Below are positions 21,653-35,748 of a stretch of 37,206 bases of DNA, in pieces. Position numbers and translations under genes: made by a program. The notes below the pieces were generated by a model. It worked only from the letters and a program-made list of their open reading frames with translations, searched no databases and was not told the origin of the DNA. Origin of the DNA: a virus (lineage: Duplodnaviria > Heunggongvirae > Uroviricota > Caudoviricetes); the IMG/VR virus record IMGVR_UViG_2737471853_000011, positions 1 to 37,206 of that record. One strand, 5' to 3'. How positions within the stretch are numbered: position 1 is the first letter of the stretch; each line of letters starts with the position of its first letter.

Positions 21653-22003
21653 TCACTTTAGCCGTTCACGGGCCGTCTTCGCCTTATGACACGGCCAGCA
21701 CAGGCTCTGCAGATTGCAGTCTGCATCAGTGCCGCCATGCGCTTTAGGGATGATGTGGTCAACGGTTTTCGCCTCACGCACCACACCGACACGCAGGCAC
21801 AACTGACACAGGCCTTTGTCACGCTTGAGCACACGTTCACGGATAACATCCCATTTCGAACCATAACCGCGCTGGTGTCGGGACTGGCCTGGCTTGTATT
21901 GCTTCCAGCCTTCGCTTTTGTGGCTTTCGCAATAGCCTGACGGGTCAGTCGTCGTATGGTGGCAGCCGCGAACACGGCAGGCTCTAGGTATCAGTGCTGG
22001 CAT
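21653..22003 (-). CDS. HNH endonuclease (terminase-associated)
   Basis: Cys pairs CxxC...CxxC with HxxxH-like motif (DHIIPKAHGG); directly upstream of terminase. Confidence 0.85.
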   Translation of the reverse strand: MPALIPRACRVRGCHHTTTDPSGYCESHKSEGWKQYKPGQSRHQRGYGSKWDVIRERVLKRDKGLCQLCLRVGVVREAKTVDHIIPKAHGGTDADCNLQSLCWPCHKAKTARERLK

Positions 22004-22130
22004 AAAATACTCTCTTTAATCTGATAGACATATTTGACAAAAGAGATTCATTTTTCTCTTTCACTCTTTCCTTTATGAGAAAAATCTGATAACAAGGTTC
22101 TAATAAAAGTAACTAAACACAGGTTATAAC

Positions 22131-22505
22131 ATGAGTGAAAAGAAAACCGTTGCTTATCGCATTGAGGGATGCGAAAACATCAAAATGATTGGAAACAAAT
22201 CATTTGGTGCTGATGTTGGTTATGAAATTATTGATTCAGCTAATACTTTTCTTTCCAACAATATTCATTACTCAGCAGAAACAGTTCGGCTTATAAAAGA
22301 AGCAGAAATCGCCATACAAAATAACTTAAGTGAAATTAACGATAAGCTTGGTGCAGAGAAGCTACAAGAAATATACGACATTTTAAATGATATCAAGTTT
22401 AATCAGTCATCAACACCTCTACAACTGATGGAGCGATTTTACTCAGCTGGTGCAAACACATTAACTTTATGGCCTATTATTCAGAGTCTCCTAAATAGTC
22501 TTTAA
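22131..22505 (+). CDS. Hypothetical protein (124 aa), AT-rich accessory gene on opposite strand
   Basis: Clean ORF in a low-GC island between HNH and the spanin genes; no recognisable motif. Confidence 0.6.
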   Translation: MSEKKTVAYRIEGCENIKMIGNKSFGADVGYEIIDSANTFLSNNIHYSAETVRLIKEAEIAIQNNLSEINDKLGAEKLQEIYDILNDIKFNQSSTPLQLMERFYSAGANTLTLWPIIQSLLNSL

Positions 22506-22583
22506 TATTACAAATCCACTTTGGTTTGAGCATAAATTATAAAGATGTCTAGTAATAGGCATCTTCAATTTAAATTAAAATCT

Positions 22584-22832
22584 TCATCTAGCATTGTTTA
22601 TACTGCGGATAGCCTTTTTATCTCTATTGCACTGCCCTAATGCAGATAACAAACTTGCATTCAGGTCTAGGCTAGCACCATATGTCAGTGGACTAGGTAT
22701 AATTGGAATCGGTGTTTCAGAAGTTAGGGTGGTTGACAGTGGTGCTACTGGGGTGCTCACGTAAACTGTCCGCGTACTTCCGCAACCGGTCAGTAGCGGC
22801 AGCAGGCACAGGATGTGAAGCGCAATCATCAT
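22584..22832 (-). CDS. Outer-membrane spanin Rz1 (lipoprotein), overlapping the 3' end of Rz in another frame
   Basis: Signal peptide MMIALHILCLLPLLTGC with lipobox Cys, Pro-rich mature part; starts inside Rz and extends beyond it. Confidence 0.65.
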   Translation of the reverse strand: MMIALHILCLLPLLTGCGSTRTVYVSTPVAPLSTTLTSETPIPIIPSPLTYGASLDLNASLLSALGQCNRDKKAIRSINNAR

Positions 22833-23109
22833 TCGCAACAGCCACTTTGATATCTTCCTGGGTTCTCTGTGACTCCAGTGCGATTTGTTGTTTTGCATGC
22901 TGGCTAGCCTCCAGTGCTGTATTTACGATTTGTATTGATTGCAGGACGTTATTGGTAATGGCAGTTGCCGATTCAGCATTTCGTACAGCCTCATCAGCAC
23001 GCTCCTTTTCGTGCTGATATTTGCTGTAGTAATGCCCGACAGACCAGATGAAGGAACCAATGACGGTAACAAAGAAGGCAACAATAACCAGCTTATATCT
23101 CAGCTTCAT
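22717..23109 (-). CDS. Inner-membrane spanin Rz
   Basis: N-terminal membrane helix then coiled-coil; follows endolysin. Confidence 0.75.
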   Translation of the reverse strand: MKLRYKLVIVAFFVTVIGSFIWSVGHYYSKYQHEKERADEAVRNAESATAITNNVLQSIQIVNTALEASQHAKQQIALESQRTQEDIKVAVANDDCASHPVPAAATDRLRKYADSLREHPSSTTVNHPNF

Positions 23110-23569
23110 TTACTACCCCACCTGCCTCTTTAAATCGGGCAATCAGGTCGCCGATTTTATGTTCATACTGACCGTAACCTGCACCTGGTAACGACGCCCA
23201 GATATTGCTGCAACGGTCGATTGCCTGACGAATATTGCCGCGGTCAATCATCGGTAAAGCGCCACGCTCTTTAATCTGCTGCAGAGCTACAGCGTCCTGG
23301 CTTTCTGGAGAAAAATCTTTCAGGCCAAGCTGTTTACGGTAAGCATCCCACCAGCGTGAAAGAAGCTGGTAACGTCCGGCGGCTGTTGACTTGAGTTTCG
23401 GGTTTAGCGTGACAACTTTGCGAGGGTGATCGGAGTAATCAGTGAAGAGTTCACCACCGACAATAACGTCATAACCGTGGTTACGTGTCGGTTGTCGTCC
23501 GTTATCCGTTCCTTCTGACCAAGCCACCATATCAAGGAAAGCTTTACGCTGGGAATTTAGTACCTGCAT
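23093..23569 (-). CDS. Endolysin, lambda R-type lytic transglycosylase
   Basis: Near-identical to lambda R over most of its length (..QRKAFLDM.AWSEGTDNGRQ.TRNHGYDVIVGGELFTDYSDHPRK..). Confidence 0.9.
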   Translation of the reverse strand: MQVLNSQRKAFLDMVAWSEGTDNGRQPTRNHGYDVIVGGELFTDYSDHPRKVVTLNPKLKSTAAGRYQLLSRWWDAYRKQLGLKDFSPESQDAVALQQIKERGALPMIDRGNIRQAIDRCSNIWASLPGAGYGQYEHKIGDLIARFKEAGGVVNEAEI

Positions 23570-23572
23570 AAA

Positions 23573-23899
23573 TTACTCCTTAGAGCCACCAAACTTATTA
23601 CCGATTACACTCATTGCAGCCCCACGAATAGCATCGACACCGATCAACCCAACGCCACCACCAATGGCAACAGAAAGAGATTTAGGCCATCCGACATACT
23701 CAAGAGCGGATGCAAAAGTCAGCGTCAGAGCACCACAGAGCAAAATCTCGAGCGTTTTTCGTTTCCAGCCCCCACCACCGCCAAAATATGCAATGCGCAA
23801 GCCAGCCATAACAATCGACATAATCACTGCGCCCAGCGGTGTGTCTCCACGCCACCAGCTCTGGACCAAGTCCAGCCAGGTATTTGGGTTATGAGGCAT
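23573..23899 (-). CDS. Holin (putative)
   Basis: 108-aa protein with hydrophobic helices and charged C-terminus, immediately upstream of endolysin. Confidence 0.65.
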   Translation of the reverse strand: MPHNPNTWLDLVQSWWRGDTPLGAVIMSIVMAGLRIAYFGGGGGWKRKTLEILLCGALTLTFASALEYVGWPKSLSVAIGGGVGLIGVDAIRGAAMSVIGNKFGGSKE

Positions 23900-24117
23900 T
23901 TGTAGTTATCTCTCACCTCGCAATACAGGAGGTGCAAATTGAGGGAACATCATGTACCGCAAATCAGAAGCGGAAACGTAAAAGAAGTCGAGCCAATGGC
24001 TAAGTACCAGATAGACCAAGCCCAACGAATACCAAGGCCTAGAAATGACAAAACCCGCTCGACGGCGGGTTTAAGTTGTGTGGCGAAGTAACCACTCTTA
24101 ACACGATACAATAGTTT

Positions 24118-24146
24118 TTGCGTACGCGTTAGTTTTTTTTTACAAT
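24118..24146 (+). promoter_or_regulatory. sigma70-like promoter for the accessory cassette, TTGCGT-N17-TACAAT
   Basis: Hexamers 24118..24123 and 24141..24146; ATG 24175 preceded by AAGGGA. Confidence 0.4.
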
Positions 24147-24174
24147 AAGGACACACAGCGAATAAGGGAAAACT

Positions 24175-24996
24175 ATGAACTTTTCTAATACCAAAAAAAA
24201 CAATTTAACAAAGAAATGTCAAGTTAGGGCTTTTAATGTGAACCTTGACGGGAAGAGTAATTTATTTCAGCAAATATCAACAAATAATAAATTTGTACAG
24301 GGTTCCATAATCCAGTTATCAACTAACAGGCATTTAAAATTAAAAGAATTTAGCACTAAAGGTAATATCCATTACTTACATTTTTCTTTATACAATCCGA
24401 AAGAAGAAGTGTCGATTACCCCAAATAAACCTAACACTAAAGATTTGTTAGATGTTGAAAATTTTGACAATTTACATGCCTTCTTTATGGTTAAGGATAA
24501 TCAAATTGCTTCACTCCTTCAAATATCCACTAACTGGAGTGAAGTCAAAATAGCAAAAATCTTCAAATGCTATGGCATAGATATTATACCGTCAGCTATC
24601 TTAAAGAAAAATGTAATCCAAAAAGTCAAAGATGATGGTTTGCGCGCTGTACATGTGAATTTCAACGTGCATGAATCAGATTTTGTTAACAAGCCTAGTT
24701 TCTTATCTGTGTTTGTAAAAAAAGAGCCAAAATTAAAACAAACAGGAATAAGTGGCCATTTTACTATCGATGCCAGAGGAAACCCTGCCGTTGCTGCATC
24801 AATTGAAAACAATCCGACGCCTTGGATATCTGATTTAAACAGTGACTTTTACTTTGAAACTAAAAAAGGAGAGAAAATCACTAGCGATGACATGAAACTT
24901 ACAAAGATTTACTACACGTTACCATACGGCTCGCAAACAATTTCCAGCAAATATGCTCATGAAATTTTAGAGCATTTTGTCACAAATGAGTTATAA
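24175..24996 (+). CDS. Hypothetical soluble protein (273 aa), first gene of AT-rich accessory cassette
   Basis: Low-GC ORF on the opposite strand to all flanking phage genes; no recognised catalytic motif. Confidence 0.75.
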   Translation: MNFSNTKKNNLTKKCQVRAFNVNLDGKSNLFQQISTNNKFVQGSIIQLSTNRHLKLKEFSTKGNIHYLHFSLYNPKEEVSITPNKPNTKDLLDVENFDNLHAFFMVKDNQIASLLQISTNWSEVKIAKIFKCYGIDIIPSAILKKNVIQKVKDDGLRAVHVNFNVHESDFVNKPSFLSVFVKKEPKLKQTGISGHFTIDARGNPAVAASIENNPTPWISDLNSDFYFETKKGEKITSDDMKLTKIYYTLPYGSQTISSKYAHEILEHFVTNEL

Positions 24997-25020
24997 TATA
25001 CTTAAAAACGGGGAGGCCAT

Positions 25021-25503
25021 ATGTTTAAAGATTATAACTGGACGGGAATTATAATTACCACAGGAAACTTCCTAGCCTCCTTCTTTTTCTCAAAATATCT
25101 CACAAACAGCTTAACAAATAACAATGACGCATTAAATCTTGTTGCAAATGTTTTCTCAATCCTATCCGGTTTTTTATTGCTAGTTATTACTATGTCTGGT
25201 GAGAACTCCTCAATTTCGAAATCACTTAATGCATTAGACAAAGCCAACCAGAGCACTCGATTTTATATGCGCTTTGTAAAAAGCTATACTCTATTCTTGA
25301 TGTATATAATTACACTTGCATTAATATTTGTATTTTATCTTTTATCCAAGGATAAAACACATTCAGGTATTTATTTTGAATATACAAAAACCACTATTGC
25401 ATATTCAATCTCATTTTTAACATGTTTCTCATTCATACAATCAACTTTCATTCCATTGAAAATAAAGGAATTGTTTGAAGAGAAGAAAAACATGAATACT
25501 TAA
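25021..25503 (+). CDS. Hypothetical membrane protein (160 aa, four predicted transmembrane helices), second gene of cassette
   Basis: GGGGAGG RBS 7 nt upstream; four hydrophobic stretches of 19-25 residues. Confidence 0.75.
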   Translation: MFKDYNWTGIIITTGNFLASFFFSKYLTNSLTNNNDALNLVANVFSILSGFLLLVITMSGENSSISKSLNALDKANQSTRFYMRFVKSYTLFLMYIITLALIFVFYLLSKDKTHSGIYFEYTKTTIAYSISFLTCFSFIQSTFIPLKIKELFEEKKNMNT

Positions 25504-25506
25504 TTA

Positions 25507-25526
25507 GAAGCCGCTGAAGCGGCTTC
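25507..25526. terminator. Hairpin between convergent cassette and Q gene (likely bidirectional terminator)
   Basis: GAAGCCGC-TGAA-GCGGCTTC perfect 8-bp stem between stops at 25503 and 25532. Confidence 0.5.
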
Positions 25527-25531
25527 TGCAA

Positions 25532-25894
25532 TCACCAAAACAAAATTGATATACATCCCTCAACAAATCCCATTGCAGTTTGCAGTTCCTTCCTAATTGT
25601 GCCATCAGAGCATTTTCTCTTCTTCGCAATAGTGCGTAATGAGATACCGATAACAAAGTGGGCGATGATGAGCTCATATTCCTCTGGTTTATACCTTCTC
25701 AACCGAGCCACACAACTGTCTATCATGATGCCTTCGTCATCATCACACTGAATCCGTGACTTTTTGCCATGAGGTAAAAGTCCCTTGAAACCAGCCGCTA
25801 TCGGCTGCCAGTCCACTCCGCTATTGTCTGAAGCAGCCCAAGCTCCCCAACGATCCATTACTTCATACATATCACGCATCAACTTTCTCCACAA
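25532..25894 (-). CDS. Late-gene antiterminator Q-like protein
   Basis: 120-aa protein with C-terminal HTH, last gene of the nin-like block before the lysis region. Confidence 0.55.
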   Translation of the reverse strand: MWRKLMRDMYEVMDRWGAWAASDNSGVDWQPIAAGFKGLLPHGKKSRIQCDDDEGIMIDSCVARLRRYKPEEYELIIAHFVIGISLRTIAKKRKCSDGTIRKELQTAMGFVEGCISILFW

Positions 25895-25896
25895 AA

Positions 25897-26892
25897 TCAG
25901 GCCAGCACACCAATTGCCAGCGCACGATCGATAAAACGAAATATCAACTCCAGCTGGGAGCCATACTTCTCTTCAAATGCCACGGTATCCGCATGCAGCT
26001 CGTCGTGATGCTTTCTGCACAAAGGCAACACAAAGAGGTCATGCGCTTTTGTACCCATTCCACCCTGACCGTGGCCTATCAGGTGGTGGGGATCATCAGC
26101 AGGCTTTCCACAACATGCACACGGCTGTGTCTTAACCCAGCGCGTGTACTTTTCATTAACCCAGCGGCGGCGTTTTGGGCGTAACATAAAAGACTCCGGC
26201 GACTCCGGATCCACTTTCAGCGCCAGCACCTTTTTCGCCTTATCCTGGATGATGCTGGTGGCAGGAACCGAAGGCACAAGGTCACTTTCCCGGGTGACAG
26301 ACGGCACAACAGGCTTCGGTAATCTCAGTGCCTTACGGGCTGCACTTTCCGGTAAGGCATCCGCCAGGTCATTACGAATCAGCCACCAGCACAGTTCCGG
26401 CATTGTCACAACGTGACTGTCATCAAAACCGAGCTCCCGACGCACAACAGACAACACCCAGCGGGCACAGTTATCCGTTGCCATTGATTCCAGCCGTTCC
26501 GTGAACTGATCGCGCAGCTGGTTATCGCAGTGCCAGCACAGACGGATTGCGCCCGGAGCGTGTCGCATTGTTGTCATGTTCTCGCTGTGCCAGTCGGAAT
26601 GAGGCCACTGGCAGCCTTTTTCACGAAGTAACCAGCTTTCAAGACATTCCACGCCACCAGCACGACGGATCACTGCCTCATTGCGGAACACGGCCCGAAC
26701 GGCAGGATCATCCGCCAGCGGTTGTGATGCCACCGGAACGGCACCACTGGCGAAAGATGAATAATGCTCCGGCTCAGGCTCCAGCAGGACACGCCCCTGC
26801 ATAAACAGGGGCATCAGCTCTGAACCGGGCCTGAACAATACGATCCCCATACGCGGGGCAATTTCAGGGGTCAGTAGTGCTCTCACGGTCAC
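25897..26892 (-). CDS. DUF968-like phage protein
   Basis: 331-aa ORF with C-terminal Cys/His cluster (CACCGKPADDPHHL..), common in lambdoid nin regions. Confidence 0.6.
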   Translation of the reverse strand: MTVRALLTPEIAPRMGIVLFRPGSELMPLFMQGRVLLEPEPEHYSSFASGAVPVASQPLADDPAVRAVFRNEAVIRRAGGVECLESWLLREKGCQWPHSDWHSENMTTMRHAPGAIRLCWHCDNQLRDQFTERLESMATDNCARWVLSVVRRELGFDDSHVVTMPELCWWLIRNDLADALPESAARKALRLPKPVVPSVTRESDLVPSVPATSIIQDKAKKVLALKVDPESPESFMLRPKRRRWVNEKYTRWVKTQPCACCGKPADDPHHLIGHGQGGMGTKAHDLFVLPLCRKHHDELHADTVAFEEKYGSQLELIFRFIDRALAIGVLA

Positions 26893-26893
26893 C

Positions 26894-27703
26894 TCAATGA
26901 ACGGTATCGAGCAGCTTTAACAGCTCAGGGAATCGGGATTCGAAGAAATGCGGCTGCGTCTCGCGCGGATTTGCGGGACTGGTGATGTTCTTGCCGAACA
27001 TGCAGCCTTTCGCTGTCAGCGACCAGAATTTTTTGATGTTGTTAATCGCGGTACGACTGTATCGTTCGCGTTGTTCAACGATCCCCAGCTTCGCCATCTG
27101 GTGATATGCCTGATTAGCCGTCAGGCGGATACCATACTGTTTCAGCAGTGCACTCAGTGACAGTGTCGGGCGACTTGAGCCATCGTGTGCATCAGCAGGA
27201 GCATCAATGGCATAGCGCGGTGCCAGATTCGGTAAGCCAACAGCCTCCTGGAGTTTCTGACAGGCACCAAGCACAGATGAGTTAGACAGGTTTAACTCCC
27301 GACGCATAAAGTCCAGCAGAATCACACCAGCCTGCATCTTGTCAGCAGCCTGTCCGGATAATTTTTCCGGTGCGCTGGTTACCATGTCGAAAGTACGGAT
27401 CACCTTCAGATGGAATGACGGGCTGATCCACATTGCATAGGCATACACCAGTTCCTTGCAGACATAAGTTCCCCGTTCATTTCCCCCATGAATCACACTC
27501 ACCGGGTCAACACCCAAATTCTGGGTGTTGGTCAATTCATGAACAAGCTCAACAGTTTGTTGGCTGGAAAGAAACTTTCCCGGCTCCTTGGTTCTGGCAT
27601 TTGCACCAGATGCTACTGCTGCGCGATGCAGATCGTTCAGGCTGTAACGCCCATAAGCATCACGACGAACTTCAATACCATCAATGACCATCAGATTATT
27701 CAT
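26894..27703 (-). CDS. KilA-N domain protein (start set at ATG 27703 with AGGAG RBS)
   Basis: N-terminus MNNLMVIDGIEVRRDAYGRYSLNDLHRA.. is KilA-N-like. Confidence 0.65.
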   Translation of the reverse strand: MNNLMVIDGIEVRRDAYGRYSLNDLHRAAVASGANARTKEPGKFLSSQQTVELVHELTNTQNLGVDPVSVIHGGNERGTYVCKELVYAYAMWISPSFHLKVIRTFDMVTSAPEKLSGQAADKMQAGVILLDFMRRELNLSNSSVLGACQKLQEAVGLPNLAPRYAIDAPADAHDGSSRPTLSLSALLKQYGIRLTANQAYHQMAKLGIVEQRERYSRTAINNIKKFWSLTAKGCMFGKNITSPANPRETQPHFFESRFPELLKLLDTVH

Positions 27704-31097: not shown

Positions 31098-31772
31098 ATG
31101 AAAACAATCCATGACATCCGGCGGTCTAACGCCAGAAAACTGAGAGATGGTGTTGGCGGGAATTCTTCCTTTGCCACTATGATTGATCGCGAGCCAACCC
31201 AGACCAGCAGGTTTATGGGAGATGGTGCTACTAAAAATATCGGTGACAGCATGGCACGACACATCGAAAAATGTTTCGACCTGCCTGTCGGATGGCTCGA
31301 TCAAGAACACCAGACAACGAACATCACAAAAAAACCTGATGTTTCAATCACTAATAAACAAATCACATTAGTCCCTGTCATATCATGGGTACAGGCCGGA
31401 GCATGGAAAGAAGTTGGATATTCTGAGGTTGATTTGAGCACAGCAGAAACGTATCCCTGCCCTGTACCCTGTGGGGAAATGACTTATATCTTGCGGGTGA
31501 TAGGTGATTCAATGATTGATGAGTACCGCCCGGGAGACATGATTTTTGTCGATCCTGAAGTACCTGCCTGCCACGGTGACGACGTTATTGCATTGATGCA
31601 CGATACAGGCGAAACCACCTTCAAAAGGTTGATAGAAGATGGGACACAGCGTTATCTCAAAGCGTTAAACCCAAACTGGCCTGAGCCTTACATTAAGATC
31701 AACGGTAATTGCTCTATAATTGGTACAGTGATTTTCTCAGGAAAACCAAGAAGATACAAAATCAAAGCCTAA
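31098..31772 (+). CDS. cI: CI-type repressor (HTH plus LexA-like S24 autopeptidase domain)
   Basis: 224-aa ORF; C-terminal half has the Ser...Lys autocleavage pattern (GDSM, KR); divergent from cro. Confidence 0.9.
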   Translation: MKTIHDIRRSNARKLRDGVGGNSSFATMIDREPTQTSRFMGDGATKNIGDSMARHIEKCFDLPVGWLDQEHQTTNITKKPDVSITNKQITLVPVISWVQAGAWKEVGYSEVDLSTAETYPCPVPCGEMTYILRVIGDSMIDEYRPGDMIFVDPEVPACHGDDVIALMHDTGETTFKRLIEDGTQRYLKALNPNWPEPYIKINGNCSIIGTVIFSGKPRRYKIKA

Positions 31773-32619: not shown

Positions 32620-33163
32620 TTCTTTTCCTTTTGCGTTGTTGGGGATAACCAGATTAACCGAATCCTTGTTGTTGGGGAATAACCAGGTCCACCTCGCCTG
32701 ATGTGGCTAAAAGCAGGCACATAACAGCTAAGTATTTTCAACCAGAGAGAATCCTTAGCGTTGTGGTGAATGCGGCTCAGCGCACGCGGGTTAAGGTTGA
32801 GGCTGACAGTCGACCTTCTGTGGATACCCACCCGCCTGGTGTGCAACCTTCGCCAGGCACCGGGAGGCACCCGGCACCACAACTTTATGCTGTGTGTAGT
32901 CCTGGCGGTACCAGTTTGTACCCTTGCTTCCGGCTGGTACCGTCCTTTTTACAAAACAGAGAAGAGCATCACCGGACGACGGGCTCATAACCCAATCCAT
33001 CCGGGCGGCTGCCACCGCAGGTGTTCTTCTCTGTTTTGTGGAGAAACTAACCGCCCCTACGGGGGCATTTATGGAAATGTAATTGACTCAATAATCGCCG
33101 GACGGTGAGGGCTTCCTTTTACCCGAATTCAGCGCGGTGCAGCGCATATACGTGGAGAACAAA

Positions 33164-33700
33164 ATGTCATTTATTAAAACTTTTTCCGGGAAGCATTTTT
33201 ATTATGACAGGATAAATAAAGACGACATCGTTATTAACGATATCGCGGTTTCCCTTTCAAATATCTGTCGCTTTGCAGGACATCTTTCACACTTCTACAG
33301 TGTCGCCCAACATGCGGTGCTTTGCAGCCAGCTGGTGCCGCAGGAATTTGCTTTTGAAGCTTTAATGCATGATGCAACAGAAGCATATTGCCAGGACATC
33401 CCCGCACCACTGAAACGACTTCTTCCTGACTATAAACGGATGGAAGAAAAAATAGACGCCGTAATCCGTGAGAAATACGGGTTACCTCCTGTTATGAGCA
33501 CGCCAGTGAAATATGCCGATCTCATTATGCTGGCAACCGAACGCCGCGATCTCGGGCTTGATGATGGCTCTTTCTGGCCTGTGCTGGAAGGTATCCCGGC
33601 AACAGAGATGTTCAACGTGATTCCACTGGCTCCAGGCCATGCCTACGGGATGTTTATGGAACGCTTTAACGAATTATCGGAGTTACGCAAATGCGCATGA
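33164..33700 (+). CDS. HD-domain phosphohydrolase
   Basis: His..HD..D pattern (..SHFYSVAQHAVL.., ..LMHDATEAY..); GGAG RBS before ATG 33164. Confidence 0.65.
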   Translation: MSFIKTFSGKHFYYDRINKDDIVINDIAVSLSNICRFAGHLSHFYSVAQHAVLCSQLVPQEFAFEALMHDATEAYCQDIPAPLKRLLPDYKRMEEKIDAVIREKYGLPPVMSTPVKYADLIMLATERRDLGLDDGSFWPVLEGIPATEMFNVIPLAPGHAYGMFMERFNELSELRKCA

Positions 33701-34358: not shown

Positions 34359-34708
34359 TGGAGCCATACAGCCTCACACTCGATGAGGCCTGTCATTTTC
34401 TCAAGATATCCAGACCGACTGCCATTAACTGGATACGCACAGGGCGTCTTCAGGCAACACGCAAAGATCCCACTAAGAATAAATCTCCTTACCTCACAAC
34501 ACGACAAGCCTGCATTGCGGCTCTTCAGTCTCCGCTGCATACTGTCCAGGTGAGCGCGGGTGATGGCATAACAGAGGAAAGAAAATGTCACTCTTCCGCA
34601 GAGGTGAAATATGGTACGCCAGTTTCACATTGCCGAACGGTAAAAGATTTAAACAGTCTCTTGGAACAAAGGACAAAAGGCAGGCGACAGAACTCCATGA
34701 CAAGCTAA
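34358..34708 (+). CDS. xis: Excisionase (AlpA/Xis-type HTH), 116 aa
   Basis: AAGAGG RBS; HTH ..[26 protein letters not shown]..; 3' end overlaps int in another frame. Confidence 0.7.
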
Positions 34709-35748
34709 AGGCTGAAGCATGGCGGGTCAGCAAACTTGGTGAAATACCTGATATAACGTTCGAGGAAGCGTGTGTCAGGTGGCTTGAAGAGAAAGCACAT
34801 AAAAAATCACTGGACGATGACAAAAGCCGGATCGGATTCTGGCTTCAACATTTCGCAGGAATGCAACTAAGAGACATTACTGAATCAAAAATTTATTCAG
34901 CAATGCAGAAAATGACGAACCGGCGTCATGAGGAAAACTGGAAACTCAGGGCAGAAGCATGCAGAAAAAAAGGGAAACCTGTTCCAGAATACACGCCAAA
35001 ACCAGCGTCCGTTGCAACGAAGGCTACGCATCTTTCATTTATAAAGGCCCTACTAAGAGCCGCAGAGCGTGAATGGAAAATGCTGGATAAGGCACCAATT
35101 ATTAAAGTGCCTCAACCAAAGAATAAACGGATCCGCTGGCTGGAGCCCCATGAAGCACAAAGGCTGATTGATGAATGTCCGGAGCCATTAAAGTCTGTTG
35201 TTGAATTTGCACTGGCAACAGGCTTAAGACGCTCAAACATCATCAACCTTGAATGGCAACAAATAGATATGCAGCGCCGGGTGGCATGGATAAACCCGGA
35301 AGAGAGTAAATCAAACCGCGCAATTGGCGTTGCGCTGAATGATACTGCATGTCGCGTATTGAAAAAACAAATCGGGAATCATCACCGTTGGGTATTTGTG
35401 TACAAGGAAAGCTGTACCAAACCAGACGGAACGAAAGCGCCAACAGTAAGGAAGATGCGGTATGACGCAAACACAGCCTGGAAAGCGGCGCTGAGACGGG
35501 CTGGTATTGATGATTTCAGATTTCACGACTTGAGACACACCTGGGCAAGTTGGCTGGTTCAAGCCGGAGTCCCGTTGTCAGTGTTACAGGAAATGGGAGG
35601 CTGGGAGTCTATCGAAATGGTTCGTCGATATGCTCACCTTGCACCTAATCACCTTACCGAACACGCACGGCAAATAGACTCGATCCTGAACCCATCGGTC
35701 CCAAATTTGTCCCAGTCAAAAAATAAGGAAGGTACTAATGATGTGTAA
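34585..35748 (+). CDS. int: Tyrosine integrase, tRNA-Thr (thrW)-targeting type
   Basis: 387-aa ORF with R...HxxR...Y catalytic pattern (..[17 protein letters not shown]..), ends 14 bp from tRNA 3' end. Confidence 0.95.

Follow-up and report, generated by a model that had tools for sequence, protein, structure and literature searches.

The 37,206-nucleotide window analysed here (IMG/VR virus record IMGVR_UViG_2737471853_000011, positions 1 to 37,206) is a complete lambdoid prophage of Escherichia coli. Between the genes for its antiterminator, Q, and its holin lies an AT-rich cassette of two genes, here called A and B. This cassette is probably a two-component exclusion or abortive-infection module of the RexAB type, formed by a family unrelated in sequence to lambda Rex. 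What supports this reading is not sequence but the predicted fold, the architecture, the constancy of the pairing, and the equivalent position: RexA is the best fold match of the A model; B has a RexB-like size and topology; the two genes are paired throughout their family; and a distant pair lies beside cI. An earlier note, written from the nucleotide sequence without database searches, had suggested a RexAB-like module, and these observations speak for it. The two genes are:

24175-24996, + strand: gene A, encoding a basic (pI 9.2), soluble protein of 273 residues with a predicted RexA-like two-domain fold
25021-25503, + strand: gene B, encoding a membrane protein of 160 residues with four predicted transmembrane helices and a basic central loop (from the open reading frame, structural model, alignment, and hydropathy)

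A predicted RexA-like fold in protein A

The AlphaFold model of A is confident (predicted local distance difference test, pLDDT, 80.4; predicted template-modelling score, pTM, 0.73), and lambda RexA is its top structural match by two methods. Foldseek comparison of the model with 350,542 chains returned only two at E ≤ 1e-3, both of them RexA. The RexA match (E 1e-4, probability 1.00) extends over about 299 aligned columns, and the next match falls to E 0.04 and probability 0.09. The global template-modelling (TM) score to RexA is only 0.33, a value that would fit a differing angle between the two domains of the model; the domains of RexA are described as hinged (PMC11077077).

The order of structural elements in the model agrees with the published RexA topology (PMC11077077): a beta-rich N-terminal domain; a central domain of four strands and four helices; and, after this inserted domain, a return strand and a long C-terminal helix. 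The model has the three-dimensional fold of RexA, in which a split globular domain carries an inserted four-strand/four-helix dimerisation domain. RdgC is a known structural relative of RexA. The features that define RdgC, its sequence family and a ring-forming dimer with a finger domain, were not found in A.

Topology and conserved residues of protein B

The AlphaFold model of B contains four long helices and a C-terminal helix. Under a strict hydropathy cut-off, the window's own copy retains no more than helices 2 and 3, but the 33 family members taken together retain all four hydrophobic zones (median peaks 1.85, 2.30, 2.75, and 1.61). The four hydrophobic helices originally reported are thus upheld by the model and the family, with just two segments passing the strict cut-off in this copy.

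The family alignment reveals an invariant motif in the second transmembrane helix (TM2), DALNLVAN.F..L.GFLLLVIT, which corresponds to 25135-25191 (B residues 39-57). It is invariant over the 33 members, down to 48% identity, and remains recognisable in relatives whose A proteins are only 19% identical: N/D-A-x-N-L-V/I-A-N-x-F-S-I-L-S/T-G-F-L. Conservation of polar residues inside a membrane helix hints at a surface that lines a pore or contacts a partner. The loop joining helices 2 and 3 has five lysine or arginine residues, as does that of lambda RexB, and includes the invariant family residues Q77, F81, R84, and F85.

Conserved pairing and genomic settings

Against a variant 88% identical in DNA, the ratio of nonsynonymous to synonymous substitution (dN/dS) is 0.077 for A and 0.066 for B; these low values mark both as real genes. 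Homologues of both occur throughout the Enterobacterales at 48-89% identity, often with consecutive locus tags. The family is widespread in prophages of this order, including those of Escherichia, Enterobacter, Klebsiella, Citrobacter, Serratia, Yersinia, Proteus, Providencia, and others. In three comparisons, A and B identities fall in step (92/90, 66/69, and 58/58%).

All 51 IMG/VR viral loci with an A homologue have a B homologue after it on the same strand, and in all 51 a convergent Q homologue comes right after B (close family, 42-100% identity). Q also stands next to B in loci of Enterobacter, related hosts, and Leminorella; a Yersinia contig stops within B, the Q side lying beyond the contig, and matches over the holin side and its adjoining noncoding block (described below). 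Replication and lysis modules differ among these Q-adjacent loci. An exhaustive profile search of 1.84 billion representative proteins turned up no more than 23 relatives of A and no bridge to any annotated family. After each of the three distant relatives that were looked up (19-31% identity), a B homologue comes next (88-128 bits against the B profile). By these comparisons, the A-B pairing is obligate and conserved family-wide.

In the locus of one 31%-identical A relative (P0182), this gene and its B-like partner (L021, 5001-6381) come immediately after cI in the same orientation, with N, sieB, ral, cIII, kil, and gam next: the lambda rexA-rexB slot. This pair is present also in the lambda-like coliphages 2G7b (NC_049954) and PhiR11_1 (PV340547), where both genes are annotated as hypothetical. 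Other pairs stand alone. In Serratia marcescens, a 66%-identical pair (L016-L018, 6001-7329) sits by itself between katG/DUF805 and NMO/MFS genes, and another distant pair (L022, 5001-6367) lies among anaerobic-respiration and methionine-synthase-like chromosomal genes. These stand-alone pairs have no phage genes nearby and lack the phage block; the promoter-like sequence upstream of them differs (TTTACA, 17-nucleotide spacer, TATTAT). Because stand-alone chromosomal copies exist, the function of the pair is independent of the phage Q system. Together, the rex-slot and stand-alone settings argue that the pair works on its own, as a positional counterpart of Rex.

The cassette and its surroundings

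The initial description of the locus, a two-gene, AT-rich, antisense cassette between holin and Q, is confirmed: open reading frames, strands, flanking Pfam calls, and base composition agree. A and B are on the + strand, and all surrounding genes are on the minus strand. The guanine-plus-cytosine (GC) content is 0.28-0.37 over 24000-25650, versus 0.46-0.59 on either side; for the insert overall it is about 0.30. Further features of the locus and prophage are:

23573-23899, − strand: holin (lambda S family; Pfam PF05106, E 2e-24, and RefSeq annotation), the first late gene past the block and terminator
24134..25548, + strand: the inserted unit, made up of cassette-specific DNA; the cassette-less prophage L011 is similar up to 24133 and again from about 25549
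25010-25016, + strand: Shine-Dalgarno sequence GGGGAGG, 4 nucleotides ahead of the B start codon; the A-B spacer is 24 nucleotides
25506..25527, either strand: stem-loop between the convergent genes B and Q (about -17 to -19 kcal/mol)
25532-25894, − strand: antiterminator Q (PF06530 type; Pfam E 8e-46 and RefSeq annotation of a 99.7%-identical locus), convergent with B
31098-31772: S24-type repressor
34585-35748: integrase

The structural genes lie further left. The point near 25549 at which similarity to L011 resumes falls within the 3' end of Q. The ribosome-binding site first proposed for the second gene is present, and relatives have an A-B spacer of 21-27 nucleotides with a purine-rich site. 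Likewise, the hairpin originally described is real, with a perfect 8-bp stem and 4-nucleotide loop at 25507-25526; its role as a terminator finds no backing, since neither strand has a T-run and the terminator scan made no call.

The cassette is carried by 10 of 5,426 complete E. coli genomes. In the near-identical locus of E. coli NT1F25, RefSeq annotates two hypothetical proteins between "holin, lambda family" and "antiterminator Q family protein". A megablast search of phage records found no close copy of the cassette, and an Rfam scan of 23000-27000 found nothing relevant.

Two other places in the prophage deserve mention. A second AT-rich island (21900-22650, GC 0.31-0.40) holds a lone + strand open reading frame of 124 codons (22131-22505) between HNH endonuclease and spanin genes. 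No significant family match was found for its product, and a relative with a 99.7%-identical cassette (L001) has a different gene in its place; this island may be another moron site. Between the repressor and integrase genes, a 187-residue open reading frame (33137-33700) has a weak match, just under the Pfam threshold, to YfbR-like 5'-deoxynucleotidase (HD domain).

Insertion between Q and the presumed late promoter

Two features separate the cassette from the holin gene:

24073..24133, − strand: conserved late-promoter/qut-like block, holding TATTGT (24113..24108), TGTTAAGAG (24103..24095), and the near-palindrome TTGCGTACGCG
24051..24072, − strand: tR'-like intrinsic terminator between block and holin (terminator scan: 8-pair stem with 5 GC pairs, and T-rich tail)

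The block is near-invariant (TTTTGCGTACGCGTTAG) although coding sequences diverge to 52-58% identity. About 45 nucleotides beyond this near-invariant stretch, on the minus strand, comes the terminator; relatives have a hairpin in the same place with a different stem sequence.

The block occurs in 137 E. coli genomes, and only 10 of them carry the cassette. In two cassette-less genomes that were examined, it starts a few bases past the stop codon of Q, and the terminator comes after it. Past the block and terminator, L011/L012 (1032-2318) have genes for a scabin-related ADP-ribosyltransferase and a subtilase-family AB5 toxin B-subunit (SubB-like), and then holins; these toxin genes occupy the position held by the stx genes in Stx phages. 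The block is also found in 358 phage records, where stx1AB, a methylase/tRNA/stx2A cluster, or lysis genes lie downstream of it. The possibility that the TTGCGTACGCG block is part of the cassette was considered and rejected: the first 42-49 query bases, which lie inside the block, occur beside Q in more than 100 cassette-less E. coli genomes, and the block is absent from the stand-alone Serratia copy.

In the lambda/82 paradigm, Q is followed by a late promoter with Q-binding and pause elements, a terminator, and the late genes. By this analogy, the block is most likely the Q-dependent late promoter region (PR'/qut). Comparison with the published phage 82 promoter gave no confident assignment of the -35, -10, or pause element of the presumed late promoter.

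In the window, the block lies on the holin side of the cassette. The cassette thus occupies the interval from Q to the presumed late promoter rather than a site beyond that promoter; late transcription modified by Q should therefore begin on its left, without ever traversing it. Two proposals of the earlier note give way here. The first placed the cassette in the classic moron site; in fact, the block and terminator (24051-24133) abut Q in cassette-less prophages and precede stx1, stx2, and other toxin genes. The second had late transcription from Q running antisense through the cassette, whereas the start should lie beyond it. Antisense transcription across the cassette could arise only by early read-through past Q, and the stem-loop at 25506-25527 is in its way.

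A putative hybrid promoter

The candidate promoter of the cassette spans its left boundary:

24118..24146, + strand: putative cassette promoter, with -35 TTGCGT (24118-24123) inside the phage block, a 17-nucleotide spacer, and -10 TACAAT (24141-24146) in cassette DNA

A sigma70-like promoter of this kind had been proposed at the outset. The sequence is present and its spacing is kept: seven of eight cassette-bearing loci, unrelated cassettes included, have a TAnnnT-type -10 hexamer exactly 17 bp from TTGCGT. The unrelated cassettes supply TATATT (Stx2a_1447 and Stx1_14040) or TAAGAT (SfII), and the cassette-less locus has no -10-like hexamer at that distance. This suggests a hybrid promoter, completed by whichever cassette inserted. 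On the other side of the account, only 8 of 12 consensus positions are matched, and the promoter scan made no call for TTGCGT-17-TACAAT. Because the -35 overlaps the presumed Q-binding region, it might be speculated that Q, or polymerase at the late promoter, shuts the cassette off in the phage's own late phase.

Insertion sequences of the IS5 family have struck this locus. Two E. coli isolates from pigs, L019 (NZ_CP062908) and L020 (NZ_CP061530), have IS5 at TTAG 24129-24132, between the -35 and -10 hexamers and also within the presumed late-promoter block. In strain WEM25, A is cut short by an IS5-family element, and the entire late region is gone.

An accessory-gene hotspot

Four further phage loci were inspected: L027 (LC567819), L028 (AP012536), L029 (KC736978), and L030 (AB285204). 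All four have an AT-rich cassette (GC 0.32-0.38) on the strand opposite Q at the same junction. In SfII, gp50 (340 residues) and gp49 (194 residues, four hydrophobic segments) match the PADLOC candidate system PDC-M53A/B. In cdtI, orf54 (313 residues, DUF6731) is joined by orf53 (147 residues, four segments), and Stx2a_1447 has open reading frames for proteins of 343 and 179 residues (the latter with four segments). The Stx1a phage Stx1_14040 has three soluble proteins (350, 130, and 220 residues) encoded immediately before the block and stx1AB. Thus, three of the four cassettes specify a soluble protein plus a four-helix membrane protein.

By BLAST, these cassettes are similar neither to A and B nor to each other; profile comparison of the Stx2a_1447 pair with A (probability 14%) and B (3%) brings out colinear matches that are weak and not significant. 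The junction of Q and the late promoter is an accessory-gene hotspot, distinct from the known stx site downstream of the late promoter.

A bolder, rather improbable reading sees in the junction a docking site dedicated to interchangeable exclusion cassettes, most of them made of a soluble plus a four-helix membrane protein (SfII, cdtI, and many Stx1 and Stx2 phages). In this scheme, the -10 of each cassette would land exactly 17 bp from the TTGCGT of the block and complete a hybrid promoter, and Q binding or polymerase occupancy at the late promoter would switch the cassette off.

Comparison with known systems

Lambda RexA/RexB (RexA, PDB 8TWQ) resembles the window pair in several respects: the order of soluble then membrane gene; protein lengths (279/144 residues, versus 273/160 for A/B); four predicted transmembrane helices and a basic central loop in the membrane protein; a basic soluble protein; and, for the distant family member, the slot after cI. 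It differs in that neither A nor B has detectable sequence or profile similarity to it. Moreover, the window pair lies outside the immunity region, between Q and the late-promoter block, on the opposite strand and with its own promoter; a location beside cI is not seen in the window, where the repressor gene is at 31098-31772.

RexABpp of Pseudomonas putida prophage P1 (PP_5643/PP_5644; PMC12894663, Sci Rep 2026), compared by its published description, is located near a cI-like repressor. PP_5643 is linked to RexA by HHpred (98% probability), whereas the profile comparisons made here with A show no such link.

Mycobacteriophage Sbash gp30/gp31 and Gordonia phage CarolAnn gp44/gp43 likewise combine a soluble protein with an effector of four transmembrane helices whose central cytoplasmic loop is important; indeed, the central loop of Sbash gp31 is essential for defence (PMC6426596). 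The B family similarly has invariant central-loop residues, and a 165-residue Sbash protein is the seventh viral structural neighbour of B (TM score 0.51, not significant). Sbash gp30 differs in its length, about 370 residues, and in its DUF4747 motif, which is common to RexA and lacking in A; the hosts are Actinobacteria.

Kiwa (KwaA/KwaB) pairs a four-helix membrane protein with a soluble, dimeric, non-specific DNA-binding protein (bioRxiv 10.1101/2023.02.26.530102), properties that are here proposed for B and A. KwaB, however, consists of a Rossmann-like domain and DUF4868, not the RexA fold, and the gene order is reversed. Neither A nor B has a PADLOC or Pfam match to Kiwa, and no Kiwa structure is among the fold matches of A.

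Finally, PDC-M53, represented by Shigella phage SfII gp50/gp49, shares the insertion site between Q and the late promoter, the orientation, the AT-richness, and the combination of a soluble protein of about 340 residues with a 194-residue four-helix membrane protein. It has no sequence similarity to A or B, and is itself a computational candidate system.

A proposed mechanism

In the proposed mechanism, A would be a cytoplasmic protein of RexA fold, probably a dimeric non-specific DNA binder, serving as sensor and activator; B would be a small four-helix effector in the inner membrane. In the lysogen, the pair would be transcribed from its own promoter, whose -35 comes from the phage late-promoter block and whose -10 comes from the cassette. 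Upon infection by another phage, A would activate B. Activated B would then damage or depolarise the membrane, growth would stop, and the infection would be aborted. Dimerisation, DNA binding, signalling from A to B, membrane damage, and defence are all inferred by analogy to lambda RexAB, Sbash gp30/gp31, and RexABpp. The company kept at the junction offers further support: this hotspot hosts other AT-rich pairs, among them the SfII pair that matches a candidate defence system.

Weighing the evidence

Several observations weigh against a RexAB-type module. The fold is shared by RdgC, a recombination protein, so the fold by itself does not imply exclusion. PADLOC (version 2.0.0, 2023) has no family matching A or B at E ≤ 1. 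Neither A nor 20 diverse family members match Pfam RexA (PF15969) or DUF4747 at E ≤ 1. With hhalign, family profile A3 reaches a probability of only 0.1% against lambda RexA and 0.4% against a 21-sequence RexA profile. The results for B are similar: hhalign against RexB gives a probability of 0.4%; the hidden Markov model of the B family scores lambda RexB at -0.7 bits; and a fold search of viral models returned no significant neighbour, with lambda RexB outside the top 50. Two further points concern expression in lysogens: the consensus match of the promoter is weak, and H-NS typically silences DNA as rich in A and T as this.

Other searches point the same way with respect to family membership. 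Pfam and NCBIfam gave nothing for A and only sub-threshold matches for B, which also fails to match Pfam RexB (PF15968). A profile search of PDB sequences with A found nothing relevant, and PHROGs led to no known family for either protein; PHROG 23561, which spans A end to end, is a group of unknown function. A literature search, with newer defence catalogues outside its range, found no paper on the A/B family. Because every sequence-level test is negative, A and B appear to be a different family, outside the RexA and RexB sequence families, that shares fold and architecture with Rex. The early suggestion that this may be a new family therefore stands: Pfam, NCBIfam, and PADLOC are without a match, and the profile comparisons to RexA and RexB are null. 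Of the profile and structure searches suggested as a check, those by structure gave RexA as the best match of A, and those by sequence and profile connected neither protein to Rex.

Three other explanations have been considered. Improbable, though the best placed of them, is a non-killing superinfection-exclusion or lysogenic-conversion module at the envelope, in which, for example, B blocks DNA entry and A regulates it. B is predicted to be a small multi-pass inner-membrane protein, it occupies a prophage accessory slot, and lambdoid phages carry such genes (for example sieB, near the distant pair). However, known entry blockers need no co-evolving cytoplasmic partner of 273 residues with a RexA fold, and the membrane proteins of the Rex-type systems tested so far act as effectors that arrest growth (PMC12894663, PMC6426596).

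There is also a small chance that the pair mainly serves the phage's own life cycle, tuning late-gene onset or lysis timing beside Q. Analogy lends this some weight, as the lambda proteins have roles independent of defence: RexA tips the switch between lysis and lysogeny, and RexB shields proteins of phage and host from ClpXP (PMC11077077). Moreover, in viral contigs the close family comes with this Q type and block without exception (51 of 51 loci), and the -35 of the cassette overlaps the block. Nevertheless, the same Q and block are found in prophages that lack a cassette or have one of another kind entirely, homologous pairs stand alone in chromosomes with no phage genes nearby, and the distant pair lies beside cI, not Q.

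A prophage-stabilising addiction pair, toxin-antitoxin-like, with B as a membrane toxin checked by A, is very improbable. In its favour, the two genes are tightly coupled, the membrane protein is potentially toxic, and 3 of the 10 cassette-bearing E. coli genomes have an IS5-family insertion or deletion affecting the cassette; against it, two of these three events come from near-identical strains, and in characterised Rex-type systems the soluble protein activates, rather than neutralises, the membrane protein (PMC12894663).

Implications

A RexAB-type exclusion module thus remains the preferred reading of the A/B cassette. Only five Rex-type systems have been described (count in PMC12894663, 2026), and the RexAB mechanism is still unresolved decades after its discovery. 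The A/B family appears to keep the RexA fold and a four-helix partner with no detectable sequence similarity to lambda Rex. Whatever the two families have both conserved is thus a candidate requirement of the mechanism, for instance the basic loop at the centre of the membrane protein or, in B, the polar motif that is invariant in TM2.

The hotspot between Q and the late promoter is found in Stx-converting phages of clinical relevance, and its cargo is for the most part uncharacterised. If the junction should prove to be a docking site for switchable cassettes, the phage would be spared its own abortive-infection module.

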